64,000 nt of DNA from an uncultured Spirochaetota bacterium (GCA_963768055.1 CAVYGN010000002.1:1120001-1184000); one strand, 5' to 3'; counted from the first letter of the stretch, positions 9,572 to 64,000 are shown. Notes: generated from the letters alone by a model not told the origin. Program-made: numbers and translations.

Positions 9572-9585
9572 AACCGGCTTTTTTT

Positions 9586-9670
9586 GGAGAGATGTCCGAG
9601 TGGTTTAAGGAGCGCGCTTGGAAGGCGCGTGTACAGCAATGTACCGGGGGTTCGAATCCCCCTCTCTCCG
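9586..9670 (+). tRNA. tRNA-Ser (anticodon GGA)
   Basis: GGAGAGA acceptor stem, CGCGC-TTGGAAG-GCGCG anticodon arm, long variable arm, GGTTCGAATCC T-loop; no encoded CCA. Confidence 0.97.
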
Positions 9671-9820
9671 ATTCCTTCTCATACCTCATTTCATTGCAAT
9701 TAAAGCACTTACACCTCGACTGGTTCCCTAAACGGGAGCCTATCACTAAATTAGCTACAAAGTTCATTTATTGCTTTGGGGGTGTTTTCTATGCTACAAT
9801 TAATCATTGAGGTGCTAAAT

Positions 9821-40864: not shown

Positions 40865-41023
40865 AAATTTTGCCCTATATAGGCCTCCAGTTTCCCCGTC
40901 TCATGGCCATATAAATTCTCGTAGAGTTATTCGCCGGAGCGTAGAATTAGAATTTTGCGACAATTCCGGTGGTTTCCCTAAAATCCTTAACGTGCTATTT
41001 TTCCCGAATTCTGCGTTCACCCC
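40865..41023 (-). repeat. Tn3-family (Tn21/Tn501-like) 38-bp IR plus ~120 bp subterminal sequence, copy 1
   Basis: Minus strand GGGGTGAACGCAGAATTCGGGAAAAATAGCACGTTAAG (41023-40986). Confidence 0.85.
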
Positions 41024-43149: not shown

Positions 43150-43743
43150 ATGAAAATAGGCTATGCCAGGGTATCGTCGAAGGACCAGAACCCCGAGCGC
43201 CAGCTTGAGGCCCTGAAATCCGCCGGCTGCGAGAAGATCTTTACCGACAAATTATCAGGAGCGGAGAGGGAAAGGCCGGCCCTGGGCGAAATGCTGAACT
43301 TCATCCGGGAGGGCGATATCCTCATCGTCGCCTCGATCGACCGCCTGGGGCGCTCAACGATCGACCTCCTTGAGATCATCCGGATGATCAGGAAGAAGGG
43401 AGCGATCGTCGAATTCCTGAAAGAAAAAATCGACCTGGCCACTTCCATGGGAAAATTCTTTTTCACTATACTTTCCGCCCTGGCGGAACTGGAACGCGAT
43501 TATATCCGTGAAAGACAGTCCGAGGGCATCAAAATCGCGAAAGCAAAAAACGTCTACAAGGGCCGGAAACCCCTGCAAAAACCCGCAGAGTGGGACTCCC
43601 TGGCCGCCGAGCTGGTCGCCGGCATGATATCCGGACACGAAATGCGCAAGCGCCTGGGCGTATCGATCGCCACATATTACAAAATGCGCCGGCAGTACGG
43701 CCCGGAGATTACCGGGAATATTCCTCAATTGGATCGAACCTAA
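43150..43743 (+). CDS. Serine resolvase/invertase
   Basis: GYARVSSKDQ, DKLSG, SIDRLGR, AELER, C-terminal HTH; AT-rich upstream region with palindrome TAGAGTATACTCTA. Confidence 0.95.
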   Translation: MKIGYARVSSKDQNPERQLEALKSAGCEKIFTDKLSGAERERPALGEMLNFIREGDILIVASIDRLGRSTIDLLEIIRMIRKKGAIVEFLKEKIDLATSMGKFFFTILSALAELERDYIRERQSEGIKIAKAKNVYKGRKPLQKPAEWDSLAAELVAGMISGHEMRKRLGVSIATYYKMRRQYGPEITGNIPQLDRT

Positions 43744-43805
43744 GAATTTAGAATCATGAATTGACATTTAATGGAGGTCTTATGTGTATGTCTATTATAA
43801 ACTAA

Positions 43806-44477
43806 CTAAGAGTTGGGTATGAGTATAGACCTTTTTTTAGAGCTTATTCGCCCGGTGGTAGTTTCTGATATCTTGCTATTATTCTTATACGTCTTCCACG
43901 AAATTTCATATTCCTCAGCCTGGTTGCCCCAGGTCGTCCAGTTTTCCCTTGCGCCCCTGCCGAATAGTTCAAGATAAGGCCCTGGACTGCAGCTTTCAAT
44001 AATCTGATACTGTTCATCCGGCTTCCGGGAATGTTCTCTTTTCATGGTTCTGATGATATTTACCTGGCTTCTCCCTGCTTCTAAAGTCCTCATTTGTCCC
44101 CTGATACCGAAAAGCAAAAGCTCAGTCGTATTCCTGAAATAAAATCCTACCCCTCTGCCATCCGGCCCGCCGTCTTTTCTGATTTTATGCCAGACGATAT
44201 TAGACTTATAATTGAACCCCCATGCTTTCATCACTTCAAGGCCCTCGGGGAGAAGCGCGTTAGGAACCCATAAATATAAATGCGCCGTTTCTTCCGCAAC
44301 CATGTAAACAGGAATTTCACCTATATCGTGAAGATTTAAAGTTTCATACCTTTTCAGCCTTTTATGCTCAGGTGCCATTTTCCCGGTCCTGTTCTGGAAT
44401 TGCCAGGGCGGATCGGCCAGAATCGTTTTAAATTTTCTATCGCTTATGAAATTGATGAAATCGTTCGCGGCGCTCAT
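43806..44477 (-). CDS. MT-A70-family adenine DNA methyltransferase
   Basis: ADPPW, HLYLW, EHSRKP, YLELFGR. Confidence 0.92.
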   Translation of the reverse strand: MSAANDFINFISDRKFKTILADPPWQFQNRTGKMAPEHKRLKRYETLNLHDIGEIPVYMVAEETAHLYLWVPNALLPEGLEVMKAWGFNYKSNIVWHKIRKDGGPDGRGVGFYFRNTTELLLFGIRGQMRTLEAGRSQVNIIRTMKREHSRKPDEQYQIIESCSPGPYLELFGRGARENWTTWGNQAEEYEISWKTYKNNSKISETTTGRISSKKRSILIPNS

Positions 44478-45067
44478 TATTCTTTCTCCATATAAAGATT
44501 TTTGGAAATACCGAATACTAATAACGGACAGCCGGCTCCGCTTCCACCTTCAATCCTCGGAAGAAGTTTTGACATATGGGTTGTCGAACTACCGTAAGAA
44601 GCGCCTCTTCCTAATTCATCAAATATATCTTGCAGATCATCACAGCGGGTAATAATTATACCGACGCTGATAGCCCTCAGATCAAACAAAAGTCTAAAAT
44701 TGTTCAGGTCCCTGTCAAAGAAAGGATCTTTGTTGTTCCATTCCATTTCAAGGGCGGTTTTATTCTTATAGCAATCTATGCTGTGTGTCGGGGATTCTCT
44801 TATTTCTTCATCTACTTTAACAGCCGTTAAAAACTTCTTTTCAATCCATCCGCGAGCGCCCATGAATTCATCTATCCATTCAGCTATTTTTGTTTTTCTT
44901 CCTCCGGGACTAAGAATCCATGATTTTTTTAACTTAAAGGCTTTTAGCATTTCAATGATATCCTTCCATTCCGAAGGGTAATCACTTTTTAAGATCGCGC
45001 AGGCATGCTTCCATTCGTGAACTTCAAAATTATTCCGGATAATTTCTGGAAGATCTAAAATACTCAT
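44477..45067 (-). CDS. BglII/BstYI-family type II restriction endonuclease
   Basis: THSIDCYK..ALEMEWNNKDPFFDRDL; overlaps the MTase gene. Confidence 0.85.
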   Translation of the reverse strand: MSILDLPEIIRNNFEVHEWKHACAILKSDYPSEWKDIIEMLKAFKLKKSWILSPGGRKTKIAEWIDEFMGARGWIEKKFLTAVKVDEEIRESPTHSIDCYKNKTALEMEWNNKDPFFDRDLNNFRLLFDLRAISVGIIITRCDDLQDIFDELGRGASYGSSTTHMSKLLPRIEGGSGAGCPLLVFGISKNLYMEKE

Positions 45068-48052: not shown

Positions 48053-48246
48053 GGGGTCACCTTGGAATTCGAATATTATTGTACGTTAAGAATTTTAATA
48101 TCATTACCGAGTAAAGAGTCGATAAAATCATAAGATTTGGGTTATCATCTGAAATTGATGATATTTTTAAGTTCTTATTATATAATAAGATAGATGGGTT
48201 TATAATTCGTTAGCGTACTATTTTTTCCGAATTCCAAGGTAACCCC
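48053..48246. mobile_element. 194-bp Tn3-family MITE
   Basis: 38-bp IRs GGGGTCACCTTGGAATTCGAATATTATTGTACGTTAAG and (rc) GGGGTTACCTTGGAATTCGGAAAAAATAGTACGCTAAC; no TSD. Confidence 0.85.
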
Positions 48247-48546
48247 TTATTCATTGTGGGGAAAAGAGTTGTGAGATATCGGTATCCCCCCCTCTCTGAT
48301 ATCCATAACTCTATACTGGATAACGAAATAGGAACCTAAGATTGCACAGATTTTACTGATTGATTTAATTTAAAAAATGCCTTGTTTCATATCTATATAC
48401 CTGTTAATAAATTATCCTTAGACTAATTTGTCTTATCGAAACTTTCATTTGGCTGGTTTGGCTCTTTTTGGTGAAAAACGATCATATTAGTAAATTCAGC
48501 CTACAGCCAATCTAACCAAAAAAGCAGTTTTAAAATATTTTGCCAA
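48247..48546 (+). repeat. Divergent copy of the ~300-bp att-like repeat
   Basis: GTATCCCCCCCTCTCTGATATCC, CATTTGG and CCAAAAAAGCAGTTTT..TTTGCCA blocks shared with the 52.7 and 53.6 kb copies. Confidence 0.6.
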
Positions 48547-49705: not shown

Positions 49706-50467
49706 TCAGGTCAAAGATTTTAACTTATTTTTCTTGATGAAATTATTCAACCTGAAACTTTTACCATCAATAACTATTTTAACCGAACCGTCTATCAAGC
49801 GGTCCATAATCGCACTTCCAATTAAGGGATTAGAAAAAACCGCAGACCATTCAGATATATCTCGGTTGCTCGTAATAATGGTCGAGGCTTTGGTATACCG
49901 TCCATTAATAACTTCATATAGATCATCCTGCTGCTGCTGATTTAAATCCTGAAGCCCAAAGTCATCAAGAATGAGAAGTTCGATTTTGAAGATGTTTTTC
50001 AGCTTTAAATTATAACTTCCATTGCCTCTTGCGGCGTTCAAGGAGCGCAGGAGCAAAACAGTGTTCTTAAACACTACCTCATGGCCTCTCCGGATAGCCT
50101 CATGTCCGATCGATTGAGCCAGGTGCGACTTTCCGACCCCGGAATGGCCTAAAAAAAAGATGTTTTCTTTGTTTTTAAGGAAATAACAGGTTGCCAGTTC
50201 CTTTATAACAGCTTCATTAATCTGAGGATTAAAACTAAAGTTGAAACTTTCCAGTGTTTTGTCATATTCAAGACCGCTCTTTTTTAACCTGATTTTCATA
50301 GCTCGCTGTTCCCTTCTTTCTGATTCTTCAAGCAGTAGACCGAGCAGGAAATCAGTATATGATGTCTTTTCATTCTGGGCCTTCTGGATATGATAATCAA
50401 GATTTTCCAATACCCCCGAGAGTTTCAAATGTTTAAGCCGGGGTATTAATTGTGCCCTGTCGTCCAT
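49706..50467 (-). CDS. istB: IS21 helper ATPase
   Basis: GHSGVGKS, LILDDFG, ITSNR, MDRL. Confidence 0.95.
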   Translation of the reverse strand: MDDRAQLIPRLKHLKLSGVLENLDYHIQKAQNEKTSYTDFLLGLLLEESERREQRAMKIRLKKSGLEYDKTLESFNFSFNPQINEAVIKELATCYFLKNKENIFFLGHSGVGKSHLAQSIGHEAIRRGHEVVFKNTVLLLRSLNAARGNGSYNLKLKNIFKIELLILDDFGLQDLNQQQQDDLYEVINGRYTKASTIITSNRDISEWSAVFSNPLIGSAIMDRLIDGSVKIVIDGKSFRLNNFIKKNKLKSLT

Positions 50468-50482
50468 AATATTTTCCTCCTC

Positions 50483-52033
50483 CTATAATTTGAAGTAACT
50501 GCTATCCCTGGCATACTTGAACGGTAGGTAAGTTTTAGGTGGATGATTCTCGTCATAAGGCTCTTTCAGATCAAGCTCTTTAACCAGGATGCTCTTTACA
50601 CTTGTATAGTTCGGAGTATCATAGAAAATTGCCCTCCTGCAGGCCGCTTCTAAGCGCTCTTTCGGATATTTCTTAGAAAGGAACAAAATACCTCTCGCAG
50701 AACGGAACCCGTCTATCTGTCTATTTGAAAGTATCCTTTCAACAACTTCCAGTGTCGTTTTTCCTATGTTTCCAGCCCAGGTAAGCAGGGATTGTGATGT
50801 TTCTGCCATATATTCTTCTTTGTAGGGCGGCGCGTGAAGGGGATTATGTGTATATTTCCATTTTATTCCGGATTTCTCATGAAGCGCTATCAATTCGTAC
50901 CCGGAATATACTTTTACAGACTTTGAATCTGCGCAGACCATTACTTCCTGGCCGATATACTTGTAAGGGACGCTATAGTATGAGCTGTCGTACTGAATCA
51001 GCCATTCGGGCCTTACAACGCAGGTTTTCCAGTTTATCATATCCCAATCTGTTAAAGGGAGCTTTGAGAGGGTCTTTGATTCTTCAATAAACATTTCGCA
51101 GGGGGATCTTCCTACGCCATGAATAATTCTGATATCTGCCGTGTCTTCATCCCATTTTTTAAGCGACTCTTCAAGATCAATTGATATGGGTATTTTGTGG
51201 CCTTTCTGTTCCTGTTTCTCGATGAAATACGGCCAGAAGTTTCTTTTAATATATTTGATATCATTCTCTACGCCGCCCTTGTGTTCCGGTTTCCCGGGAA
51301 GACATGGACTGATCATGAAATCGTAATACTTGGCCATTTCAAGAAAACTTCGATTAAAGATAGGGTCATAAAATGCGGCTTTTACAACGGCCGATTTCAG
51401 GTTGTCCGGCACGATCTTCTTCGGTATTCCTCCAAAGTGATGAAAAGAATGTATGATGCATAGAAAAAATGTCTCTTTTTTCTGGTTATAGACCACCTCG
51501 CGATATGCCTTACGGCTCTTTCTAAGCCTGCCGGAGAATACCCAGGCTTTTCTGTTCCTGCATTCCAGCGGATCATAGACTATGCCGAGATATCCGAAAT
51601 CCACTTCCATAACCCCGTCTTCAAGGGGTCTGATCATCACGCTTGGTTTCAAAGCAGGAAATTTTCTCTGTATATACCGCCGGACGGTTGTTTCGGATAT
51701 ATTTGCACAATCAGAAAATTCACTGATCAGCTTGTGAATAACCACATAACTTTTTTCATCTTCCCTGTATTTTTTTAGTTTCTCAATATGATTATCCAGG
51801 ATGTGAGGTTTTCCTTTGATATTTTCCGGCTCATTATATGCCAGGTCCATTTCTTTTTCTGTGGGCACGTCTGATGACGATGAAAGCCATTCCTTTTTAT
51901 CGCCTATATCCTTTATTTTTCTTATGACTTCCCGGTGTGTCCCGGTTTCTTTGTGGATATTTCTGATAGATTCGCCTTTCTTTAGCCGGGTCAATATTTC
52001 GATGAGTTGTGCCATGGTTTTTACCCTCGCCAT
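50483..52033 (-). CDS. istA: IS21 transposase
   Basis: EVDFG, GGIP..PDNLK, PEHKGGVEN, YYSVP. Confidence 0.95.
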   Translation of the reverse strand: MARVKTMAQLIEILTRLKKGESIRNIHKETGTHREVIRKIKDIGDKKEWLSSSSDVPTEKEMDLAYNEPENIKGKPHILDNHIEKLKKYREDEKSYVVIHKLISEFSDCANISETTVRRYIQRKFPALKPSVMIRPLEDGVMEVDFGYLGIVYDPLECRNRKAWVFSGRLRKSRKAYREVVYNQKKETFFLCIIHSFHHFGGIPKKIVPDNLKSAVVKAAFYDPIFNRSFLEMAKYYDFMISPCLPGKPEHKGGVENDIKYIKRNFWPYFIEKQEQKGHKIPISIDLEESLKKWDEDTADIRIIHGVGRSPCEMFIEESKTLSKLPLTDWDMINWKTCVVRPEWLIQYDSSYYSVPYKYIGQEVMVCADSKSVKVYSGYELIALHEKSGIKWKYTHNPLHAPPYKEEYMAETSQSLLTWAGNIGKTTLEVVERILSNRQIDGFRSARGILFLSKKYPKERLEAACRRAIFYDTPNYTSVKSILVKELDLKEPYDENHPPKTYLPFKYARDSSYFKL

Positions 52034-52250
52034 TCATTCCCCTCCTGTGTGATTTCAAAAATTATATCACATCAGGTGGGTCACTAAATACGCCGGGGGG
52101 TGGGTCACTTAAAGTGCCGATAGGTGGGTCGTTATTTTTGCCGACCCTGGGTCACTTGGGGTGCCGGATTGCACCCATAAAGAAATAGAAATATTGTTTA
52201 TTCTAGCATTAAAATAAGTTAAAATATATTTATAGTTATTAAGGATAGTT

Positions 52251-52439
52251 ATGCCAAAAGTAAAAATGGCAATTGATTTGATAGAAAAAGATGGATGGTT
52301 TATTTCAAGGATAAGAGGAGATCATAGACAATATAAACACCTAAGTAAGAAAGGTCTTGTAACAATCCCCGGTAAAATGTCTGATGATTTGGCTCCCGGG
52401 ACTTTTAATAGTATCTTAAAACAAGCCGGATTAAAGTAG
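52251..52439 (+). CDS. hicA: HicA toxin
   Basis: DGW..RGDHRQYKH..VTIP..GTFNSILKQAG. Confidence 0.92.
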   Translation: MPKVKMAIDLIEKDGWFISRIRGDHRQYKHLSKKGLVTIPGKMSDDLAPGTFNSILKQAGLK

Positions 52440-52447
52440 GAGGCACA

Positions 52448-52672
52448 ATGAAAAGATTTACTGTAAATTTCGAAAAAACTAATACAGGTTACAGCGCTTA
52501 TATACCGGACTTGCCTGGATGTGTAGCTACTGGCGCCACAAAAGAAGAATGTGAAAAGAGTATTTATGAGGCATTGAAGTTCCATATAGAGGGAATGGTC
52601 GAAGAAGGTTTGCCGATACCTGATAGTATCACAGATAGTGAAGTAATGTTTGTCCCGGATCTTGTAAAATAA
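52448..52672 (+). CDS. hicB: HicB antitoxin
   Basis: YSAYIPDLPGCVATGATKEE. Confidence 0.92.
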   Translation: MKRFTVNFEKTNTGYSAYIPDLPGCVATGATKEECEKSIYEALKFHIEGMVEEGLPIPDSITDSEVMFVPDLVK

Positions 52673-52684
52673 GAAAAACTATAG

Positions 52685-52993
52685 AAAACTTCTGCCAGTC
52701 CCCTGCAAGTAAAATCATTTTGCAAGTTGCGTAATTCGTTGCGGAAAAATAAGTTGTGGAATATCCGTATCCCCCTCTCTACGAATCCTGTAATTCTTTA
52801 CCCTGCAATCATTTGTGTTAATTTATCTTGATTTTATGTGGTTAGAGTGGCTCATTTGGTTGAAAAAAGGGTATTCTATCAAATTCTTACCAATCCAGCC
52901 AAACCTGCCAAAAAAAGCATTTTTATTAAAATTTGCCAGTCTGGTGCCGGTAAATTATATAGAGTTACGAGTTTTACTGACACTGGAAAAAAT
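52685..52993 (+). repeat. ~300-bp att-like repeat, copy 2
   Basis: AAAACTTCTGCCAGTCCCCTGC...TTTACTGACACTG; tRNA-3'-like core at 52764-52788. Confidence 0.85.
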
Positions 52994-53019
52994 ATGTTTT
53001 TTGAATAAAAAAAAGAATA

Positions 53020-53307
53020 TTATGATACTCGCCGTTTTAAGATATCATAAAAATTTTCTCTTTTCCCAATCATCAGGATTGTAACAATATTTTCATTTTC
53101 ATTGATGATAAAACATATCCTGTATTCTGTTCTTACTTCCTTGAAATGATAAGAATATATTCCATTTAGGTTGCCTGTTAATTTTTCATATTTGAAAGGG
53201 TCTCTAAGAATATTGTCAATATGACTCTGCTGAATTTTTTTAATAACTGTGTAATCCAATGATTTTAAATCTTTTTTGACTTGAGGATGATATTCATCCT
53301 TAAACAC
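53020..53307 (-). CDS. relE: RelE/ParE-family toxin
   Basis: KKDLKSLD..LTGNLNGIYSYH..EYRI..IGKRENFY. Confidence 0.88.
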   Translation of the reverse strand: MFKDEYHPQVKKDLKSLDYTVIKKIQQSHIDNILRDPFKYEKLTGNLNGIYSYHFKEVRTEYRICFIINENENIVTILMIGKRENFYDILKRRVS

Positions 53308-53482
53308 TAAATATTTCCGCTCTTGAAATGGGTTTGACCTTCTTTTTTTCTATTTCGTTTTTTCTCTTGATTAAATTTCCGGAAATTCCGGAAAGCAAAA
53401 CTAATAGAGTTTCTTTATCATGGCGATTTAAATTATTAACAGTTTCAGCCAGTGTTTCCATGCTGATTTTTAATTGGGGCAT
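53300..53482 (-). CDS. Putative antitoxin for RelE
   Basis: Small gene overlapping the relE start; GGAGG RBS; KVKPISRAEIF tail. Confidence 0.75.
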   Translation of the reverse strand: MPQLKISMETLAETVNNLNRHDKETLLVLLSGISGNLIKRKNEIEKKKVKPISRAEIFSV

Positions 53483-53567
53483 ATTGTCCTCCATTCTGAC
53501 CACATTAAAATTTTAACTAATGGAATGGTTTGTGTCAAACGGCTTATAAATATGAGAATTTTAATAA

Positions 53568-53888
53568 AAAACTTCTGCCAGTCCCCTGCCAGTAAAATTA
53601 TTTTCCGGGTTGTGTTATTCTATGCAGAGTAATGAATTATAGGATATCCGTATCCCCATCTCTCCGATATCCTGTAAGTCTTTACCCGCCAATAAGTTAT
53701 GCCGAATTATCTTGATTTTATATGGTTAGAGGGGTTCATTTGGTTGAATAATGGCTACTTTATGAAATTCTAACCAATCCAGCCAAAAAAAGCATTTTTA
53801 ACAAAATTTGCCAGTCAGGTGTCTCTGATGGCCGAAGGCTGCCAGTAGATTATAATTAGTTACGTGATTTACTGACACTGACAAAAAT
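53568..53888 (+). repeat. ~300-bp att-like repeat, copy 3
   Basis: Collinear with copy 2; core at 53647-53668. Confidence 0.85.
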
Positions 53889-54178
53889 AGGAGTTTGATT
53901 AGTGAAAATGTGTATCTTAGAGTTTTTCAGTCAACGCACTGTTCAAAATGCACTCTTTGTGAAAACTAGTCAATTTTAACAGGTTAACAGGTTAAATTGT
54001 GCGTTAATTTCTTCTCGGTAAAGAATGCTCTCAATATTGGTAAATTTGGAGAGTTATTTGGGAAATCTTGGCTTAAATTTATAAGTAAAGAAAGCATGCT
54101 CGGCAATTCATCTTGACAAAATTGATATTTCTTATTTAATTTTATTTAGGACATTTACAAACAAAGAAGGGGGAGATA

Positions 54179-54745
54179 ATGAGAAAACTTATATGGCAAA
54201 TGAGTGTTTCTTTAGACGGTTATGCAGATCATACAGAGGTAATTGCAGATACCTCCCCCGAAGCTTTCGATGAGTTGTTTGATTTTACCACTAAACAATG
54301 GGATCAAATGGATTTCTTGTTGTTCGGACGGGTTACTTATCAACTTATGGAGGTCTGGCACAAAGTTCCCGAAGACCCTAATGCAACAAAGAAGATGATT
54401 GAATTTGCAAACAAGTTTAATGCTATGCCAAAAATTGTATTTTCACGATCCCTCCAGAAAACTGTGCGGGAGAATGAAAGATTGATAAGAGATAATGTCA
54501 TTGAAGAAATTATCAAATTAAAGCAGCAATCTGGCAAGGACTTATCCATAGGCGGTTTAAACCTCCCTCAAGAATTTATAAGACATGGATTGATTGATGA
54601 ATACCTACTTTTGCTTCAACCTCATATTTTAGGGAAAGGGAAGCGTTTGTTCGATGGTTTAGAAGAAAAAATCAAACTGAAACTTATTAATACGGTGACG
54701 TTTCAGTCCGGTGTAGTCGTTTTACGCTATTCCTCTGAAAAGTAA
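54179..54745 (+). CDS. Dihydrofolate reductase/RibD C-terminal family protein
   Basis: VSLDGY, LFGRVTY, PKIVFSR, GLIDEY..P.ILGKGKRLF. Confidence 0.9.
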   Translation: MRKLIWQMSVSLDGYADHTEVIADTSPEAFDELFDFTTKQWDQMDFLLFGRVTYQLMEVWHKVPEDPNATKKMIEFANKFNAMPKIVFSRSLQKTVRENERLIRDNVIEEIIKLKQQSGKDLSIGGLNLPQEFIRHGLIDEYLLLLQPHILGKGKRLFDGLEEKIKLKLINTVTFQSGVVVLRYSSEK

Positions 54746-54762
54746 GTTTTCCTCCACTAAAT

Positions 54763-54920
54763 GGGGTAGCCGCAGAATTCGGACAAATTGGTACAACGTT
54801 AATGATTGGGGAAACTCAAAAAAAACCGTAAAATTCTAATTTTACACTCCGGAGAATAACCCGGCGAGTAAATAAGACCATGAGGCGGGAAAACAGGGGG
54901 CCCTATAGAGGGCAAAATTT
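54763..54920 (+). repeat. Tn3-family IR plus subterminal sequence, copy 2 (degenerate)
   Basis: GGGGTAGCCGCAGAATTCGGACAAATTGGTAC...GGCAAAATTT, homologous to 41023-40865. Confidence 0.8.
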
Positions 54921-54982
54921 CAGGGGGTGTGGATCCTTCGCATTCTAACAAGATAAATGGTTCCAAATGAATGAAATATTAT

Positions 54983-55948
54983 TTAATCGTTTGTAATCAT
55001 TTTATTAGTTATGATGGAATTTGAACTTATTGTTTCGTTGGTGTTAACAACTTTTGTATTGAGGTCATTGGGTTCAATGAAATCAATATATTCATTACCA
55101 ATAATAAAATTATTTAATTTCAGTTCAAATCTCATTTTCCCCTTATGAGCATTTCTGTCATTGTATATATTATTGTGCCAAGTATTCCAACTTACTGATT
55201 TTGGATGGAACTTATAACCACCCTGATCAATAATATTATTATTGCTATCATAAACAGTTGTTACCAAATAATATGTGTTTTTAGATAAATTAAACCATTT
55301 AACATAAAAATACAAATCTTGATCGCGCCCTAAAATATAATAATTAACCTCTGGGTTATTATTACCTGCCCTTAAATGAAAAACTGCCTTATATTTTATA
55401 TTAGTTTGATCTTCCTTACTTAAAATGAGATTGGATGCTCCCATAGGGTCTACCGAACTCGAGTATAGGGCCAGGGCCCCCGTTATATTAGTATTGGTAC
55501 TTACAAAATCAATGAATTCATTTCCAAGCACATAATTGTTAAGAGTAATCTCAAACCTGTATTTTCCGGGTGCTATGTTAGCATTGTATTTTCTTTTAAA
55601 CCATGTTCTGAAATAATATTCTTGCATCTGGAAATAATTATGGAAACTGTCGATAATTTTATTACTTTCATTATAAACTTTTAAAGATAGCAGATATTTA
55701 TCATTTGGCATCTTCCATTCTATATATATAATCAAGTTCCTGCCAGAATCCAGCGAATATTTATCCAATTTACCCACAGGTTTAAAAACCCTATCCAGCA
55801 AGTCTGTAAAGGTTAGATCATACCATATATTCGAAGCATTATCCTTTGTCAATGGCCTTATCCAATATTTGCCGATTTTTATCAAATTGTCATCGGTAAA
55901 CCCCGCCAAAGTAGTTGTGAATAATAATAATAGCATAATTTTAATCAT
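54983..55948 (-). CDS. Secreted protein with two homologous beta-rich (Ig-like) domains
   Basis: Signal peptide; GKYRFEITLNNYVLGNEFIDF vs GKMRFELKLNNFIIGNEYIDF. Confidence 0.75.
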   Translation of the reverse strand: MIKIMLLLLFTTTLAGFTDDNLIKIGKYWIRPLTKDNASNIWYDLTFTDLLDRVFKPVGKLDKYSLDSGRNLIIYIEWKMPNDKYLLSLKVYNESNKIIDSFHNYFQMQEYYFRTWFKRKYNANIAPGKYRFEITLNNYVLGNEFIDFVSTNTNITGALALYSSSVDPMGASNLILSKEDQTNIKYKAVFHLRAGNNNPEVNYYILGRDQDLYFYVKWFNLSKNTYYLVTTVYDSNNNIIDQGGYKFHPKSVSWNTWHNNIYNDRNAHKGKMRFELKLNNFIIGNEYIDFIEPNDLNTKVVNTNETISSNSIITNKMITND

Positions 55949-56383
55949 TATTTCCCTCCTCTTCGCGGATGGTTACCCTAGAATGCCGAGACTATCAAAA
56001 TTTAGAAAATCCTTATTTTTAATCTGAATATTATTAACCTTCAAAAGGTTGAAAAATCTTAATTTATTTAAAATTTATTGTCAATATTCATGAAAATAAG
56101 AGAAGACTATTTAAGAAATTCCCAGGTTGTGGATCCTCACAATTCTAACAAAAGGAAAGTCGGTTCTGAAGTCATTAAGCAATATAAATGCAAATATAAT
56201 AAAATTGAATCTAATGTGACTTTTGTCGGCAATGTTGGAGGTACTCCATTAAGATCAAATGTCACTTTAATTTTCTTTAATTAAATCGGCGGCTTGTAAA
56301 ATTCTCAAACCTTTGATAAATAAAAATATTCCAATTCCCCGTGTGTTAGGATAGTTGTCGCCTAAAATATTAGGAGACAAAAA

Positions 56384-56866
56384 ATGAATAGTCAAATTCG
56401 TTCAGAGGAATTCAGGAAATCTATCGTTCAAAAGATGTGTATGCCAGGAGGAAAAACAGTATCTGAACTGAGCCAGGAAATAGGAGTATGTGAACAAACC
56501 CTTTACAACTGGAGGAAAATGATCCAGAATAATGTATCCAGAGGATTCCAGGATAGAAGCCCGAGAGGCTGGAAATTATCTGATAAATATCAGGCGGTAG
56601 TAGACGCAGCAAGCCAATCGGGAGAAGAGTTAGGACAGTGGTTGAGAAAAAATGGTCTCCAGTCGACTCATATCGAACTCTGGAAACAGGAGTGTTTATC
56701 AGTGATATCTAATAACTCATACAGAGAAGAAAACAAGGGTTTGAAAGCAAAAATCATAGAGTTAGAAAAAGAAATTAACCGTAAGGATAAAACTATAGCC
56801 GAGGTTACTTCTCTGCTGGTGCTTAAAAAAAAACTGAACAAGCTGTTCGGGATCGAGGAAGATTAA
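56384..56866 (+). CDS. IS3 transposase OrfA
   Basis: HTH (GVCEQTLYNW), LLVLKKK. Confidence 0.9.
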   Translation: MNSQIRSEEFRKSIVQKMCMPGGKTVSELSQEIGVCEQTLYNWRKMIQNNVSRGFQDRSPRGWKLSDKYQAVVDAASQSGEELGQWLRKNGLQSTHIELWKQECLSVISNNSYREENKGLKAKIIELEKEINRKDKTIAEVTSLLVLKKKLNKLFGIEED

Positions 56867-56871
56867 CTCCA

Positions 56872-57900
56872 TTGGATATACGCATAGATATCTGTGCCTT
56901 GATTAATGAGGCTGTTACGACAGGGGCCAGCAGGGATAAGGCTTGTGAAGAATCTGGCTATGATATAAGGACCATACAGCGCTGGAATAAAAATCTTGAG
57001 GGAGACAGAAGAAAATTGAGAAATGTAATGCCTTCAAATGCCCTGTCGGCCGAAGAAAGGGAGGAGATCATCTCCTGCTGTTGCAGCGAGAGATTTAGAG
57101 ATATGACGCCGAATGAAATAGTGCCCATGCTGGCAGAGGAAGGTCGGTATATAGCATCAGAATCATCTTTTTACCGCGTTTTAAAGGACAATGATTTGCT
57201 GCACCATAGATACGAAACGAAGCCGAAAACGGCAAGGAAAACGCCAAGAGAACTGGAAGCGACGGGTCCTAATCAGGTATGGAGTTGGGATATTACATAT
57301 ATATCCAGTCATATAAAAGGTAAGTATTTCTACCTCTATATGATCGAAGATGTCTGGAGCCGTAAGATAGTCGGCTGGAAAATGCACGAGGAGGAAAGCT
57401 CTGATCATGCCGCAAGAATGGTGGCAGAGATCGGAGAAACCATTGATTTGAAAGGCTTGTATTTACATTCTGATAATGGTTCTCCTATGAAAGGGGCTAC
57501 GATGTTAGCGACCTTGCAGAGGTTACAGGTTATGCCGTCGTTTTCAAGGCCGAGTGTAAGTAACGATAACCCTTACTCAGAATCATTGTTTAAAACATTG
57601 AAATATAATGTGAAATACCCAGGCAATTTCGAGACAATGGAATCGGTAGAAATATGGATGCAAAATTTTGTAGACTGGTATAATAATAAACATCTTCATT
57701 CAGGGATCGGATATGTCACACCAGCACAGAGACATGAAGGTAAAGATAAGGCGATACTCCTGAAGAGAGCGGAAACTTATGCGGCTGCAAAAAGCAGACA
57801 TCCTGAAAGATGGTCAGGAGAATCTAAAAAATGGGAACGGATAGAATCGGTATTTTTAAACCCGAGTAAGACTAACAAGGAATCGTTGGTTGCGGCGTAA
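56872..57900 (+). CDS. IS3 transposase OrfB (DDE)
   Basis: WSWDITY, HSDNGS, DNPYSESLFKTLK. Confidence 0.93.
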   Translation: MDIRIDICALINEAVTTGASRDKACEESGYDIRTIQRWNKNLEGDRRKLRNVMPSNALSAEEREEIISCCCSERFRDMTPNEIVPMLAEEGRYIASESSFYRVLKDNDLLHHRYETKPKTARKTPRELEATGPNQVWSWDITYISSHIKGKYFYLYMIEDVWSRKIVGWKMHEEESSDHAARMVAEIGETIDLKGLYLHSDNGSPMKGATMLATLQRLQVMPSFSRPSVSNDNPYSESLFKTLKYNVKYPGNFETMESVEIWMQNFVDWYNNKHLHSGIGYVTPAQRHEGKDKAILLKRAETYAAAKSRHPERWSGESKKWERIESVFLNPSKTNKESLVAA

Positions 57901-58707
57901 AATAAAAGCGACAACTCCCTTGACAAAAACCGCAATTATTATGCCTATTAATGTAAATGTACTGTTAAAATATGGTAAGGATCTATAGAAAATAGAAGAA
58001 TAAGTTATTATCATTGAGAAAACGAAAAACATAACGGGGAATATTATACTTGATAGGAGATACATTTTATAACCTGCTTCCCACATTTCATTGGTTGTAT
58101 TATTTCTATAAGCCAAAGCTTTAAATCCTGCATCATTATTGCCCTGAACGGCAACGACAATATTGTCATTTTTGGAGACTGATACAGGTTTATAGGATTT
58201 GACTATAATAATTTTTTCATTCAACATAAACATAAAGATATAAGTTCTTACCATAAATCTTATAGTGCTCACGCCATATCTATATTGAATAGGCATATAA
58301 TATGGTTTATCTTTTATTGTTTTATCTATTGTGGTAGCTAGACCTTTAAGTATTTCCATCTGGTAAGACCCCTAAAAATTGTATTATTAAATATTTACCA
58401 TTTGACACCTTGTTCTCCCGAAAAAATACTTCACAAATTACTCGAAGTAAAAAAATATATTTTAAGAGAAATTCTATTTTACTAATCCTTTATTGTCAAA
58501 TGCAAGAAAATAAAAGAGGAATAGACCAGGGATTTACAAACTGTGGATCCTTCTATCGCTTTTCACAAAGAAATATGGCATAAAGGTTATAGAATTTTTA
58601 TTTTGGAGAAAATACTAATTTGATACCGTTTCATAGAAAATGCTAATACGATACCCCTCTAACTGAACTCCTACTTCAGCAAAAGGGGTAAGAATTCCTT
58701 GTGAATA

Positions 58708-58845
58708 GGGGTGGACGCAGAATTCGGGAAAAATAGTACGCTAAGGATTTAAGGGTTATCCCCCAAAAACCTGCAAAATTCCAAATATACGCCCCGGTGA
58801 ATACCTCGTTAGCTAAATTAAGGACATGGGGCAGGAAAGTCAGAC
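58708..58845 (+). repeat. Tn3-family IR plus subterminal sequence, copy 3
   Basis: GGGGTGGACGCAGAATTCGGGAAAAATAGTACGCTAAG (58708-58745). Confidence 0.88.
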
Positions 58846-58925
58846 TGTGAATCTAAACAATTTTAACAAAGAAAGTTTTAGATTAATCTTTGTATATGTT
58901 TATATTATCTGAAATTATTTCAAAT

Positions 58926-59045
58926 TTACAAATGTTTTCCGGATCCAAACTCCCAATGCCACTTGAAATTTTTATTATCTATGGTTGTTTTGATATAACC
59001 AGATTTTCCTTTTGTTTCAATTTCAACATGAATATTATAATCCAT
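58926..59045 (-). CDS. 39-aa possibly leaderless ORF or truncated cassette gene
   Basis: ATG 5 nt after TTGACA-17-TAGAAT; MDYNIHVEIETKGKSGYI...WEFGSGKHL. Confidence 0.4.
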   Translation of the reverse strand: MDYNIHVEIETKGKSGYIKTTIDNKNFKWHWEFGSGKHL

Positions 59046-59172
59046 AAAAAATTCTATTTTATCCAATTACTATTGTCAATGTTAGAGTGTGGATCCTTCG
59101 CAATTCTAACAAAGAAAAACTTCCAACCTAGTTGAAACCTGCTATTTTCAAAAAATATAGTGGATAATTAAT

Positions 59173-59907
59173 TTAATTTTTTATGGCTATTACTGTGTTA
59201 AACCAAAATCCCTGGGGTAGAAATTTGGGTTTTTCAATCCTGACTGACATTCCAGCCTTAGAGAAAACATCTTTGTATTCTTTAATAAAAAAATAAGCCG
59301 CGTCAGATATTATGACAATCCCTCCGGGTTTAAGAACACGGTAAATTTCCAGGCAAGCGCTGTATCTTTCCTTTTTCGAAGGTATATTATGAAGGCATAG
59401 ATTTGAAAGTACAATATCAAAATATCCTCCGGGAAAAGATGTTTTTATTATATTTTCGTTTTTAATCTCAATCCTGCCGGAAACATTTTCTATTTCAGCG
59501 TTCTTAATTGCACTGTCAGCTATATTAACCGCCATATCCTGCTGTCTCCAGATGTCAATCCCTATCGACTTCCCATACGGCAGTTTTTTAGCGGCACCAA
59601 TCATAAGCAAGCCATGTCCTGTTCCGACATCAAGGACGGTTTCGTTTCCCTTCCATTCAATATTTGATAATATAGCATCCCTGTGCTTTAATTTTCCAAT
59701 CCTTATATAAATGATCAACTTGGTCGCTCTGTACAAAATAACAATCCCGAAAATCAAAATAACACAAGCGGCTAAACGAAATAAAAGCCCATGTAAAACA
59801 AAAAGTGAAACAATAAGAGTTGCATCGGTTACAACAGCTATTATCAAAGTAATGATCGTAACCCGCGGGTTGCCATCCCAGCCGTAATCGGGATTTACCT
59901 GTTTCAT
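59173..59907 (-). CDS. Class I SAM-dependent methyltransferase with N-terminal TMs
   Basis: VLDVGTGHG, GIDIW, FDIVLSNLCLHN, RVLKPGG. Confidence 0.9.
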   Translation of the reverse strand: MKQVNPDYGWDGNPRVTIITLIIAVVTDATLIVSLFVLHGLLFRLAACVILIFGIVILYRATKLIIYIRIGKLKHRDAILSNIEWKGNETVLDVGTGHGLLMIGAAKKLPYGKSIGIDIWRQQDMAVNIADSAIKNAEIENVSGRIEIKNENIIKTSFPGGYFDIVLSNLCLHNIPSKKERYSACLEIYRVLKPGGIVIISDAAYFFIKEYKDVFSKAGMSVRIEKPKFLPQGFWFNTVIAIKN

Positions 59908-60016
59908 TCAAAACCCCTATTTTTTATATGGAATTATAAATGCTTAATAGAGATTGTTCAATAATAACCTAATTATGAAATCATGTGACTCGAAAAGTCT
60001 TTTGTTAAAACATACG

Positions 60017-61717
60017 TTGCCTGTCGTTTTTTATCAATAACCCATGTACATTGAGACCTCATCCCGTTATAATAAATGTAAGAAAAACGGGAGTAATCTA
60101 TGGCAAACTTCGAGCATAATACAAGCAGCCAGGGATTGTTTTTATCTATCCAACTTGAAGATCAGTTTGATCCGGATAGCCGTGAATATATTATAAAAGA
60201 GTTTATTCAGAAAAATGTAAAAATTGAAGATTTTGAAGAAGAATACAAGAACGATCATACTGGCCGTAAAATCAAAAATCCTCAAGATGTCGTCGCGGCA
60301 ATCCTTTACGGTTACATTACAGGAAACCGTTCAAGCCGCAAGATCGAAGAACTCCTGAAAACTCACATCGGGTTCATGTATATCTCTAATTGTCTTAAGA
60401 TTGATCATTCGATCATTTGTAATTTCAAGATTAAATTTCGGGAACAGATTAAAAATGTTTTCAGCAAAATGCTTTATGTAATGAATGAAATTGAAATGAT
60501 AGACTGGAGCATTGTTGCAGGCGACGGAACTAAGATTAAGGCTTATGCGAGTAAAGGCCAGAACATAGGCAGGGGATTCATACAAAAACTTCTTGAAGCA
60601 TATCACGAGACGGCTGACAAGATAGTTGAACGGGATATTGAACTTGAAAAAGATTTCGAAGAGGGTAAAATCGACCCTAAAGAGCATGATGCGAAAAAGA
60701 TGCGCATTATCAGACAGAAGCGAAAAATTGAAAAGGCTATTTCCAAGATGAATAAATGCATCGAAGATGATGAAACGAACAAAAAATCTGAAAAGAAACG
60801 GGTTAATCTAACAGATCCGGATAGTGGTTTGACAGTGTCAGGTTCGAAAGATGGATATATCCAGGGGTATAATGCGCTGCTTATGTTAAGCAATAATGAT
60901 GTTGTTCTTGATTTTGATGTAATCACTTATGAAAAGGAATGTAATTATACAGAAGAATTGGTCAATGGGGTTGAAGAGCTTAAGAAGGATTTTGGAGCTG
61001 AAGAAGAAAGCAAATATTTATTTGATTGGGGATTTCAAAACATGGAAAAAACACTCAAGCTCGAGGATAAAGGGCTTGATATGTATATTGATGTCAGGGA
61101 AAGGGATTTCTGCGATAAATCCGAAAAGCGGAAAAATTTTAAGTTAATAAATACAGAGGGACAATATAAACTCAAATGTCGTAATAATAAGGAAACAAAG
61201 GGATATTGGAATAAGAGAACCAATAGTTTCTCATTCCTGTTTGACCGCAAAAAGTGTAAGGGTTGTCCTTTCATGCCAGAATGTTATAGTAAGACGAAGG
61301 AAACGACTTTACATAAGACAGTTTCGTATTATAGATTCGAGGTTGAAAATTGGGATAAGATAGAAAAATACATGAATAAATTCCGAAGCGAGGAAGGTCA
61401 AAAAATATACTCGAAACGAATAGGTAAAGAACATGTTCATGCAAACATAAAAAACCAGCGTAACTTTCAACAGACTTATTACCGGGGAAAGTCAAATGTC
61501 AGGATGGACCTCTGCTGGGCGGTTCTGGCACAGAATATGTGTCGTTATATCAACTATATGAGGAAATAGGAGGGAATTTGGTAGGATTTCAACCATTATA
61601 AAAAAGCTGTTTCAATCTTTGGAATTTATCCGAGGGCTGACCAAACTTTTTCAAAAATTTAAGCATGATATCGTAAGAGAATCCCTGTTTTTTTAAATTG
61701 TATTAAACGACAGGCAA
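60017..61717 (+). mobile_element. IS1182-family element with TSD ATACG
   Basis: IRs TTGCCTGTCGTTT / AAACGACAGGCAA; ATACG at 60012-60016 and 61718-61722. Confidence 0.92.
60100..61569 (+). CDS. IS1182-family transposase
   Basis: SSRKIE, DGTKIKAYAS, TDPDS, GYN, CxxC, YSKR..EHVHANIK. Confidence 0.9.
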   Translation: MANFEHNTSSQGLFLSIQLEDQFDPDSREYIIKEFIQKNVKIEDFEEEYKNDHTGRKIKNPQDVVAAILYGYITGNRSSRKIEELLKTHIGFMYISNCLKIDHSIICNFKIKFREQIKNVFSKMLYVMNEIEMIDWSIVAGDGTKIKAYASKGQNIGRGFIQKLLEAYHETADKIVERDIELEKDFEEGKIDPKEHDAKKMRIIRQKRKIEKAISKMNKCIEDDETNKKSEKKRVNLTDPDSGLTVSGSKDGYIQGYNALLMLSNNDVVLDFDVITYEKECNYTEELVNGVEELKKDFGAEEESKYLFDWGFQNMEKTLKLEDKGLDMYIDVRERDFCDKSEKRKNFKLINTEGQYKLKCRNNKETKGYWNKRTNSFSFLFDRKKCKGCPFMPECYSKTKETTLHKTVSYYRFEVENWDKIEKYMNKFRSEEGQKIYSKRIGKEHVHANIKNQRNFQQTYYRGKSNVRMDLCWAVLAQNMCRYINYMRK

Positions 61718-61925
61718 ATACGATATTCACAAATGACACCCCTTTTCCCCATAATATTTCCTTGCTTTTTACCTCTTTTTTGTGAGAATTATGGTACTCC
61801 ATTTGTTAAAATTTAATGAGTCCGGTCTAAAAAGTATTCATTTAGAAACGTACAAATCGTGATCAAAACATTGATAATAACAACATAACTAATTACAATA
61901 TATGCAATTGAAATTTAGGAGTGGT

Positions 61926-62207
61926 TCAATGTTCAAAGAAAACAATTGTAAAAATAGCAAGGCAAAACGTGAGCCATTTTATTGCAACCTCTTCATTGTG
62001 AAGTGCATCTCTAAGGCGCCGATTTGATTCCACAATTGCGCTATTGTTTATAGAGTACGATGCCCGGAGTATTTTTATATCGGGTAATTTCATTATTTTT
62101 TCTAATTTATCGTCTGGTAAATTTACAATACCCATATTTTCTGTACGTGCCGGTGAACCAATTATATCGGCAAGCTTAAGATTCTTATCTATTTTCATGA
62201 ATACCAT
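61926..62207 (-). CDS. Small hypothetical protein with C-terminal TM
   Basis: ORF track; hydrophobic tail. Confidence 0.45.
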   Translation of the reverse strand: MVFMKIDKNLKLADIIGSPARTENMGIVNLPDDKLEKIMKLPDIKILRASYSINNSAIVESNRRLRDALHNEEVAIKWLTFCLAIFTIVFFEH

Positions 62208-62285
62208 AATTTGCGGTCTTCACGCCGGCTTAATATTTATATAAGTTGACAACCAGTGGTTTACTATGCTATTATTATAGTTGAT

Positions 62286-62564
62286 ATGATAAAATCTTTT
62301 CAGCATAAAGGGCATAAAGCCTTTTTTAATACAGGCACAAAAAGTGGCATAAACCCCGATCATGCCGAGAAGATCGACTTCATCCTTGCCACCCTAAGAA
62401 CATCAAGAAGTCCCCAAGACATGAGACTACCGATGTTCGATCTCCACGAATTGAAGGGGGATCGCAAGGGAACATGGGCGGTAAGCGTAAGCGGAAACTG
62501 GCGGATAACATTTAAATTTGAAGATGAAAACGCCATAGATGTAAATTATGAGGATTACCATTGA
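62286..62564 (+). CDS. higB: HigB (plasmid maintenance killer) toxin
   Basis: MIKSFQHKG, LHELKGDRKG.W...VSGNWRITFKF, YEDYH. Confidence 0.93.
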   Translation: MIKSFQHKGHKAFFNTGTKSGINPDHAEKIDFILATLRTSRSPQDMRLPMFDLHELKGDRKGTWAVSVSGNWRITFKFEDENAIDVNYEDYH

Positions 62565-62574
62565 GAGGATTAAA

Positions 62575-62874
62575 ATGAATATAACCGAAAGGAAACCCAT
62601 GCATCCGGGCAAATTATTGCTTGAGGCGGTTATTAAACCGTTAAATTTAACCATTACCGAGGCCGCTAAAAGGCTTGGTACGTCCAGACAGAATTTGACC
62701 GATCTCATACATGAACGAATATCACTCACTGTTGATATGGCGATGAGGATTGCTGCTGCGACCGGCACAAGTCCGGAAAGCTGGTATGATCGCCAGGTCA
62801 TTTTAGACATGTGGACTGCATCAAAAGAACCACCGAGAGATATAATTAAATTCTCAGGAAAGAAAACAGCATAG
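62575..62874 (+). CDS. higA: HigA antitoxin
   Basis: HPGKLL, TEAAKRLG, MAMRI..GTSPESW. Confidence 0.93.
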   Translation: MNITERKPMHPGKLLLEAVIKPLNLTITEAAKRLGTSRQNLTDLIHERISLTVDMAMRIAAATGTSPESWYDRQVILDMWTASKEPPRDIIKFSGKKTA

Positions 62875-62935
62875 GATACATTTTTTATGAATTCTACTGA
62901 CACTGGAAAGGGTAGGAGTTTTATAATATGAAAAT

Positions 62936-63520
62936 GTGTTTATGATTGATTCGAAAAAACGCATCTGCTGGCCAACAAATGATCCTCTCGTTGTTGAATA
63001 TCATGACAAGGAATGGGGCGTCCCCCTCCATGATGATAGAAGACTGTTCGAATTCCTTGTCCTCGAAGGATTCCAGGCGGGCCTGAGCTGGATTACAATT
63101 CTAAGAAAAAGGAAGCGCTTCAGGGAAGCGTTCGACGATTTCGATTTCAGCAAAGTTGCCGGATACGGAGAAAAGAAAGTAGGCCTTCTTATGGAAGATT
63201 CGGGAATAATAAGAAATAGGCTCAAAATCGTTGGAGCGGTGGCAAATGCGAAAGCATTTTTATCGGTCAGGAAAGAATTCGGGGATTTTGACAGGTATAT
63301 TTGGGGTTTTGTTCAAAACAAGCCGATTCGGAATAATTTCACTTCCCTGGAAGAACTTCCGGCAAGCACTGAATTATCCGGAATTATCAGCGTGGACTTG
63401 AAAAAAAGAGGGTTCAGGTTTGTAGGTCCAACGGTCGTTTACGCTCATATGCAGGCAACCGGAATGGTCAACGACCACCTGGTATCCTGCCCCAGGCATG
63501 GGGAAATCGCTGTATTGTAA
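62936..63520 (+). CDS. tag: DNA-3-methyladenine glycosylase I
   Basis: YHDKEWG, LEGFQAGLSW, IIRNRLKI, FVGPT..MQATGMVNDH. Confidence 0.95.
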   Translation: MFMIDSKKRICWPTNDPLVVEYHDKEWGVPLHDDRRLFEFLVLEGFQAGLSWITILRKRKRFREAFDDFDFSKVAGYGEKKVGLLMEDSGIIRNRLKIVGAVANAKAFLSVRKEFGDFDRYIWGFVQNKPIRNNFTSLEELPASTELSGIISVDLKKRGFRFVGPTVVYAHMQATGMVNDHLVSCPRHGEIAVL

Positions 63521-63712
63521 TTGAAAGTTTGAATAATTCTTTTTTCATTATACCCGCCATAATTTCCCGGGAATTTTAACTGGCCCGAAAAAAAATTTAA
63601 ATAGCCCTGCAGGATCTGGTCAGGACCGCGAAGTCAGAGGCCGGCAAGACTAAACTCCCTGCTGAAGGATCATTTCCTCCGGCAGGGAGAAAGGTTTTTT
63701 AATAAAATAAGT

Positions 63713-64000
63713 TTAAAGATCGCTTAAAGCGTATATTTTATTGTTAATATTTTGTATGGTAATATATCTGGCGTCATGGCTGATAAATACGCTCCCAAAC
63801 CCTAATGAAACCGCTTCCGGTACTCTTTCTTCTTTCCATGAATTACCGGCATCGGATGTGCGGGCGATAATCCATTTCAAAGTCTTATCCAGGTAAATCA
63901 GGACTGCGTCTTTTTCGGATGTAAATCGCAGGGCGGAATATGGCTGCCTTTCCAGAGGCATGAGTGACCTTCCGTTCAGATTAACCGATTTTTTATTCCA
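63713..64000 (-). CDS. 3' end of a gene running off the window (BNR/Asp-box-like)
   Basis: RTSDAGNSW Asp-box motif. Confidence 0.5.
   Translation of the reverse strand, partial: WNKKSVNLNGRSLMPLERQPYSALRFTSEKDAVLIYLDKTLKWIIARTSDAGNSWKEERVPEAVSLGFGSVFISHDARYITIQNINNKIYALSDL

Follow-up and report, generated by a model that had tools for sequence, protein, structure and literature searches.

A recurrent bipartite box beside small gene modules in a spirochaete mobile-element island: a candidate site-specific recombination junction

The stretch of DNA analyzed here, called the window below, comprises 64,000 nucleotides (nt) from the 3.69-Mb genome of an uncultured Spirochaetota bacterium (G000). 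Its right-hand part holds a series of small genes that are separated by copies of a short bipartite sequence, called the box. A first-pass annotation, made from the sequence alone, had described this series as an integron-like but attC-free gene-capture array, and had suggested that it may be driven by a serine resolvase or by a tyrosine recombinase acting in trans. In what follows, we examine the copies of the box, the genes that lie between them, and the counterparts in two species of the same genus (G020 and G023) and in a sister genus (G024). We will show that the box belongs to a larger element with a sharp right-hand end, that its clustered copies are always co-oriented, and that the modules beside it differ between species. 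These properties are consistent with a site-specific recombination junction, which is the interpretation that we tentatively favour, and they are compared below with other explanations and with known systems.

The genes and features at the array are collected in Table 1. Each interval between boxes in the window corresponds to one gene, much as the first-pass annotation had it, and each gene has its own promoter: the RibD_C gene, an open reading frame (ORF) of 321 amino acids (aa), a gene of ca 163 aa that is split by an insertion sequence (IS), a 39-aa ORF, and the methyltransferase gene. The limits of the interrupting IS3 copy were taken from multi-copy contigs, and the length of the split gene was obtained by reading through its flanks. 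Three leftward promoters of the type TTGACA-17-TAGAAT/TAAGAT, starting from 56084, 58499 and 59079, were likewise confirmed just to the left of the boxes, where they are the top-scoring minus-strand sites. Used as a query, the 321-aa ORF gave no match in any of 11 relatives from the family. With a start codon only 6 nt past the −10 hexamer, the mRNA of the 39-aa ORF would be leaderless.

Table 1. Positions of the box array and of related features in the window (R1 is the covariance model described in the text)
Feature	Position	Strand	Details
Third inverted-repeat unit	40865..41023	−	diverged box, then promoter and four minus-strand genes; R1 16.4 bits
Weak box-like sequence	53958..53981	+	TGTGAAAACTAGTCAATTTTAACA; loose pattern only; TGTGAAAAC subtype
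RibD_C (dihydrofolate-reductase-like fold) gene	54179..54745	+	PF01872, E 1.2e-18
Full junction unit 1	54763..54950	+	inverted repeat 54763-54802, ca 125 nt of subterminal sequence, box 1; R1 60.6 bits for 54877-54953
Palindrome GCCCTATAGAGGGC	54900-54913		inside the subterminal sequence of unit 1
Box 1	54928-54950	+	TGTGGATCCTTCGCATTCTAACA; 23 nt; strict copy
321-aa ORF	54983..55948	−	no Pfam family above cut-off; accessory gene
Promoter-like TTGACA-17-TAAGAT	56056..56084	−	serves the 321-aa gene; 10/12 consensus matches
AT-rich junction element without GC palindrome	56072..56153	+	ends in box 2; R1 38.6 bits, E 2.6e-10, model positions 5-78
Box 2	56128-56150	+	TGTGGATCCTCACAATTCTAACA; 23 nt; strict copy
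Gene of ca 163 aa split by IS3-family copy	56267..58359	−	IS 56337-57933, AATT at both edges
Promoter-like TTGACA-17-TAGAAT	58471..58499	−	serves the split gene; 11/12 consensus matches
Degenerate box 3	58542..58567	+	TGTGGATCCTTCTATCGCTTTTCACA; left arm TGTGGATCCTTC exact, right half altered, ends TTTTCACA
Full junction unit 2	58708..58868	+	38-bp inverted repeat 58708-58745, subterminal segment without palindrome, box 4; R1 22 bits, E 4e-5
Box 4	58846-58868	+	TGTGAATCTAAACAATTTTAACA; clear variant
39-aa ORF	58934..59053	−	start 6 nt past −10 hexamer; promoter 59051-59079, 11/12 consensus matches
Box 5	59088-59111	+	TGTGGATCCTTCGCAATTCTAACA; exact 24-mer, strict copy; R1 28.4 bits; −35 hexamer of the 39-aa ORF 8 nt away
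S-adenosylmethionine-dependent methyltransferase gene	59173..59907	−	Pfam Methyltransf_11/31/25; own promoter 59933-59961
IS1182/IS5-like insertion sequence	59997..61737	+	DDE_Tnp_1_6/DUF772; outside the repeat family; site uninterrupted in G020

The consensus of the box is TGTGRATCC-N5-6-ATTYTAACA, with a length of 23-24 letters, and every confirmed copy in the window is on the plus strand. Direct copies had been claimed at six sites, and four of them (54928, 56128, 58846 and 59088) stand, the pattern TGTGRATC-N0-12-TTYTAACA matching the window four times against a mean of 0.00 in 100 shuffles. The copy at 58542 is degenerate, with a right-half variant (TTTTCACA) that recurs in copies of G020 and G023, and the sequence at 53958 has only a loose likeness to the box, its subtype being found also in G021 and at C2:1026041 of G000. 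Neither of these two was reported by the element model at E<=1. The supposed inverted copy at 60000/61731 had to be discarded, as it consists of the terminal inverted repeats (59997-60029 and 61705-61737) of the IS1182/IS5-like element, the transposase of which lies at 60100-61569. Over the whole genome, the strict pattern has three forward matches and no reverse match, all three being located in the window, and the reversed control gives none. The refuting case named by the first-pass annotation, a transcription-factor site upstream of many core genes, is thus not what is found genome-wide.

By alignment, the box is the right-hand end of a larger junction element of ca 75-80 nt, or 160-190 nt when a Tn3-type inverted repeat is included. 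To describe this element, a sequence-only covariance model, called R1, was made from 18 aligned copies after an initial profile. The right boundary is sharp, with the similarity ending within a few bases past ...TAACA in all 18 copies, and the left side is common to the copies over about 50-165 nt. In two further copies (G020:C1:1491018 and G023:C11:4049), the match to the model breaks off at position 59-60 of 79, past the left arm and inside the box. In the two arms, TGTG-R-ATCC and ATT-Y-TAACA, 16 of the 18 positions agree in 16-18 of the 18 copies, and the remaining two positions are the R and the Y. The 5-6 columns of the centre are variable, TTACG and TTCGC being recurrent there.

The left flanks of the boxes fall into two kinds on alignment. 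The boxes at 54928 and 58846 each form the end of a unit whose start is a Tn3-family inverted repeat of the GGGG...ACGCTAAG type. This confirms the earlier observation that two boxes directly end a Tn3 subterminal segment, with inverted repeats starting at 54763 and 58708. The flank at 56128, 58542 and 59088 instead contains a leftward promoter close to the consensus. At 56128, this promoter-type flank can be identified as an AT-rich version of the same ca 75-nt element, because R1 matches it over almost its whole length (see Table 1 for the score). Three copies of the element in the window extend to the left as far as a Tn3-type 38-bp inverted repeat, and a bare repeat of this type is present at 48234. 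The window thus has four solo Tn3-type inverted repeats within 18 kb (41023, 48234, 54763 and 58708) and is devoid of a Tn3 transposase. The same contig has three intact Tn3-family copies 370-420 kb further along, which encode toxin-antitoxin passengers and either a resolvase or a small tyrosine recombinase, and one of them (L014) has two tandem inverted repeats (11712 and 11760).

The 5-bp palindrome in the subterminal sequence was considered as a sign of a role as RNA or as a single-strand hairpin. However, its changes among the copies are one-sided or disruptive, with no compensatory change in an alignment that is ragged at this place, and this role was therefore rejected. A search of Rfam with positions 52000-64000 at E<=5 gave no match.

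The element is found in one spirochaete genus, with one copy in a sister genus and two weak ones in a third. R1 has six matches in G000, five of which fall in the window, nine in G020, eight in G023, one in G024 and two weak ones in G030; the 7 other genomes of the family have none. The strict pattern is present in 2 of 401 genomes sampled from the phylum, namely G000 and one species of the same genus. In public data, it was met once each in 13 genome contigs and 41 metagenome contigs, and these matches were treated as chance, because they are no more than expected of an 18-letter pattern, come from unrelated taxa, and share no flanks with the window by blastn. A plasmid collection searched with the 193-bp unit gave no match. 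Four freshwater-sediment sequencing runs, all of one study, contain parts of the stretch, as contigs of depth 1-3 only, and it is these runs that supplied the limits of the IS3 copy. No excision was seen, but the runs, for which no joints were listed, are uninformative in this respect. A literature search on integrons and cassettes in Brevinematales turned up no paper naming this group among those listed, which is not proof of absence.

We now consider the surroundings of the element in the relatives. In all six multi-copy clusters (the window, G023:C12, G023:C1, G020:C3, G020:C1 at 1485-1491k, and G023:C15), every copy is on one strand. Co-oriented pairs bracket a glyoxalase-family gene in G020:C3, a 122-aa ORF in G020:C1 (1485-1486k), a beta-propeller gene in G023:C1, a TPR gene with RelB/YafQ in G023:C15, and HigBA-like, flavodoxin and AhpC-like genes together with an IS3 in G023:C12. 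The modules between or beside the copies are small accessory or toxin-antitoxin genes (glyoxalase, SnoaL, AhpC-like, SDR, RelB/YafQ, HigBA-like, TPR and ankyrin). Since genes face the box from either side, there is no fixed promoter geometry for it. In the window, the distance from the box to the leftward −35 hexamer is 8, 42 and 42 nt, and elsewhere the box is upstream of rightward genes. A solitary arrangement of promoter, 42-nt spacer and TGTGAAAAC-subtype box occurs at C2:1026041-1026092 of G000 (L015), upstream of a 139-aa signal-peptide-like ORF and beside an IS21. Two loci of G020 have a box at a distance of 0.4-1.2 kb from an IS3 (ORFs of 342 and 160 aa) with Pfam scores close to those of the window copy, and in G023 the distance between a box and another IS3-family copy is about 1.5 kb. 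In the window and in these other cases, the IS3 is always on the right-hand side of the box.

The methyltransferase module is the only one that two species share at high identity. The block at 59135-60012 is 96% identical to its G020 counterpart (L082, 6470-7348), whereas the neighbouring core genes are 70-83% identical, and this difference indicates a recent horizontal exchange of the module. In both genomes the box is located at the 3′ side of the gene, with unrelated DNA past it. The IS1182-like element landed later, at the upstream edge of the module in G000. The RibD_C copy of G020 is 76% identical and is also beside a box, although on the opposite side relative to G000. An AhpC-like module that adjoins a box in G023 has its G000 homologue at a different genomic place, beside an apparent box remnant. 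There is also a pair of an empty and a filled site, as G020 has the methyltransferase and RibD_C genes between two ArsR genes and the C1 contig of G000 has the same place without both.

Taken together, the sharp common end, the bipartite core, the co-orientation, the module content and the changing neighbours fit best with a site-specific recombination junction, either att-like or irs/res-like, for swappable modules. We favour this interpretation with slightly less than even confidence; that the box recombines, and by which type of recombinase, is inferred. In such a mechanism, TGTGRATCC and ATTYTAACA would be two protein-binding arms around the variable centre of 5-6 bp. Modules would be joined at the junction to one another, and also to the inner side of Tn3-family transposon ends. 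The recombinase would be encoded elsewhere in the genome and act in trans, a tyrosine enzyme being more probable than a serine one. The gene-capture array of the first-pass annotation is hence retained in part: the box does bound independently promoted single-gene units in the window, and likewise one- or two-gene modules in two sister species, but the serine resolvase as its driver is not supported. A precedent for homology that breaks at a short site is provided by Tn3-family transposons, in which, according to Lima-Mendez et al. (2020, PMC7157771), whole left ends and toxin-antitoxin modules are exchanged at res site I.

It should be pointed out that several observations speak against a recombination junction. 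The conservation of the arms is partly built in, because most copies were retrieved by box patterns or models, although several were retrieved via the left ca 50 nt instead of the box. A one-base difference in the length of the centre among the copies does not sit well with a crossover of fixed geometry. The 96% block of the methyltransferase stops 24 nt (G000) and 33 nt (G020) before the box and the two boxes differ, so no crossover in the box is visible in that exchange. The two-module insert of G020, as compared with the C1 contig of G000, has no box at its outer ends. Further, no recombinase adjoins any of the copies examined, and Pfam searches on 46 + 28 neighbouring ORFs of the relatives returned IS transposases as the only such enzymes. 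Finally, the palindromes upstream of the TnpI-like genes, discussed next, differ from the box, including those of the intact copies at L085 (G020) and L104 (G023), and R1 run with filters off over seven intact Tn3/TnpI loci (70,201 bases, the resolvase-bearing L012 and L014 not included) gave a best E of 0.38. L012 and L014, the tnpR-bearing Tn3 loci, were covered by the whole-genome searches only, which reported no copy there.

The candidate recombinases in G000 are TnpI-like genes at C2:1577422 and C2:1571322, a small recombinase gene near C2:1848263, two Xer-like genes, and the integrase at 9776 and the resolvase at 43150 of the window. A serine resolvase is argued against by the absence of any PF00239 match in the five relatives G020, G021, G022, G023 and G024, although two of these hold nine and eight copies of the element, respectively. 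An Xer/dif system is not suggested by the box either. The candidate chromosomal dif of G000, at C1:1165377 on the minus strand, is of the low-GC Gram-positive type, …TTTCCTATAA GATATA TTATGTTAAGT, and is one of five matches to a dif pattern; its sequence (…TTTCCTATAAGATATATTATGTTAAGT) is unlike the box. G023 has three tyrosine recombinases other than Xer, and a search for them in five genomes showed that only the TnpI-like one tracks the distribution of the element. Its gene is intact in the copy-rich G000, G020 and G023, broken in G021 and G024, and was not found in G022, these six genomes being related and therefore not independent.

Of the other explanations, the most serious is that the copies are decayed relics of a single non-autonomous element derived from a Tn3 end (the inverted repeat and about 150 nt), which spread by transposition or local duplication and became truncated from the left. 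The box would then be its best-kept inner end, and the intervening genes would be ordinary genes of the island. The four solo inverted repeats without partners, the longest copies beginning exactly at the outer GGGG of the repeat, the left-truncation series formed by the copies, and the richness of the region in insertion sequences are all in line with this. Random decay, on the other hand, does not explain why the right end is constant and why the copies are co-oriented in all six clusters. Moreover, the intact Tn3 copies have the inverted repeat in common but neither the 130-nt segment nor the box, G023 has eight copies but no match to a Tn3 transposase, and a possible 5-bp flanking duplication is seen at only one of the four full units. 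We thus consider relics possible but doubtful. An expression boundary, with a terminator for the right-hand gene and a promoter or regulator site for the left-hand gene that are copied together with the promoters, appears rather improbable. The minus strand does read GCCCTCTATAGGGC and then CCCCTGTTTT, which scores as terminator-like (a hairpin followed by a T-run), the boxes of the window are located 32-62 nt past minus-strand stop codons, and the spacing to a consensus −35 hexamer is 42 nt in three copies (56128, 58542 and C2:1026041 of G000). The palindrome is, however, missing or broken in many copies and compensated in none, the promoter spacing is 8 nt at 59088 and genes elsewhere face the box from both sides, and there is no genome-wide occurrence upstream of core genes.

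Two further explanations assign the box to known recombination sites. As a res-type dimer site, it would serve the serine resolvase at 43150 or the TnpR of the resident Tn3 copies. The TGT...ACA ends, the resemblance by reading of the reversed right arm (TGTTAGAAT) to the repeated half-sites TGTCAGAAT and TGTTCTAAT upstream of the two tnpR genes of G000, and the position of the box relative to the HigBA-like module, which is that of res site I, point in this direction. Half-site-like words can also be read in the 130-nt segment, and no tnpR follows them. This explanation nevertheless seems quite improbable to us in view of the five relatives that lack PF00239, the lack of a box upstream of the resolvase at 43150, and the empty model searches of the Tn3 loci described above. 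Even more remote is the proposal that integron attC sites are what separates the genes, the array then being a CALIN (cluster of attC sites lacking integron-integrases), which we regard as very improbable. It would account for the co-oriented array, the small diverse cassettes including toxin-antitoxin pairs, and the junctions of ca 75 nt. But the best match to an integron integrase (TIGR02249) in G000 has 87.8 bits against a cut-off of 265, with the matches being Xer-like, the arms of the box are not mutually complementary and no R''/R' inverse core pair is evident by eye, and most cassettes have a strong promoter of their own.

The array is part of a larger island, which starts from a tRNA-Ser gene (9585-9671) with an integrase at 9776 and further holds RecT, STAND, type ISP and BglII-type restriction genes, Shedu, two IS21, HicAB-like and ParE-type genes, and the GC-rich resolvase at 43150. 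Directly to the left of the array, direct repeats of ca 340 bp (52666-53004 and 53549-53899) contain copies of the 3′ end of the tRNA-Ser (52766-52789 and 53649-53673), a further copy being present at 48284-48304. These repeats bracket the HicAB-like pair and a ParE-type toxin-antitoxin pair, and pieces of them are also found at C2:14-18 kb and C1:5-18 kb. It looks as if modules without an integrase of their own had accreted in tandem behind the one at 9776. Since the tRNA-Ser-core repeats adjoin the box array, two different junction systems would abut here. Two other parts of the island can be mentioned. At 43150-45067, the resolvase gene is GC-rich in an AT-rich setting and has genes for a BglII-family endonuclease and for an MT-A70 methyltransferase as neighbours, and this segment may be a mobile restriction-modification unit. 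At 52074-52166, four direct repeats of ca 22 nt (GGTGGGTCAC...GCCG) at the end of the IS21 copy at 49706-52033 look like multiple terminal transposase-binding repeats.

If the box does work as a recombination site, it would add to integrons and Xer/dif modules another independent means by which small accessory genes are stored up and exchanged, and its physical tie to Tn3-family ends would suggest a route by which transposons pick up cargo. The molecular route by which toxin-antitoxin modules are acquired is called unclear by Lima-Mendez et al. (PMC7157771). A more far-reaching proposal, which we put forward as a speculation and consider unlikely rather than likely, is an undescribed module recombination system of Brevinematales-type spirochaetes. 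Its site of ca 75 nt, with a core of 9 + 5-6 + 9 and no relation to attC or dif, would be the place at which a chromosomal tyrosine recombinase stacks and reshuffles promoter-bearing single-gene modules and docks them on inner Tn3 ends, such that a Tn3 transposase could carry the arrays off. If, instead, the copies are relics only, what they provide is no more than a useful map of a mobile-element hotspot that has decayed.

It is instructive to compare the array with known systems. With integron arrays and CALINs it shares the co-oriented, small, diverse and mostly single-gene cassettes and junctions of roughly 60-140 nt, but it differs from them in having no IntI, no attC-type symmetry (by eye), cassettes with promoters, and a Tn3-type inverted repeat fused to one kind of junction. 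Tandem accretion of cis-mobilizable elements (CIMEs) at att sites also gives direct core repeats with a one-sided conserved arm between recombinase-less modules; here, in contrast, the box is not tRNA-derived, its centre varies, and the copies are dispersed over many loci as singles and pairs. A transcription-factor operator would have a fixed position relative to the promoter, whereas the −35 spacing is 8 or 42 nt and genes are present on either side of the box.

Tn3-derived inverted-repeat miniature elements (TIMEs) are short, non-coding and flanked by two inverted repeats. The units described here resemble them in the Tn3-type repeat, but have one repeat each and end in a box, with no inverted partner within reach and with the possible target duplication at a single unit mentioned above, so they qualify neither as TIMEs nor as miniature inverted-repeat transposable elements of the Tn3 family. 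The plasmid dif (pdif) sites of Acinetobacter are 11-6-11 Xer sites that resemble the chromosomal dif and alternate in orientation. The clustered copies of the box are all direct repeats, are unlike the candidate dif, and possess a conserved left arm of ca 50 nt. What the two systems have in common, as far as pdif modules are described in two articles (PMC6449649 and PMC13141974), is that small accessory modules, including toxin-antitoxin genes, are delimited by short bipartite sites whose centre varies, and that the recombinase acts in trans from outside the module.

The last comparison is with the exchange at res site I and irs of Tn3-family transposons. In the array, 125-165 nt separate the site from the inverted repeat, neither a resolvase nor a transposase follows the site, and it is repeated in tandem at the junctions of several modules. 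Most copies are without the inverted repeat, and no copy of the element was found in the intact Tn3 transposons of these genomes. An irs of TnpI would be expected directly upstream of tnpI in an intact transposon, where L085 and L104 have other palindromes and no R1 match. The likeness to the exchange described in PMC7157771 consists of a Tn3-type inverted repeat followed by a short conserved segment, the homology of which breaks at a single short site. Toxin-antitoxin modules and small passengers abut that site, and promoters are located in the site region.

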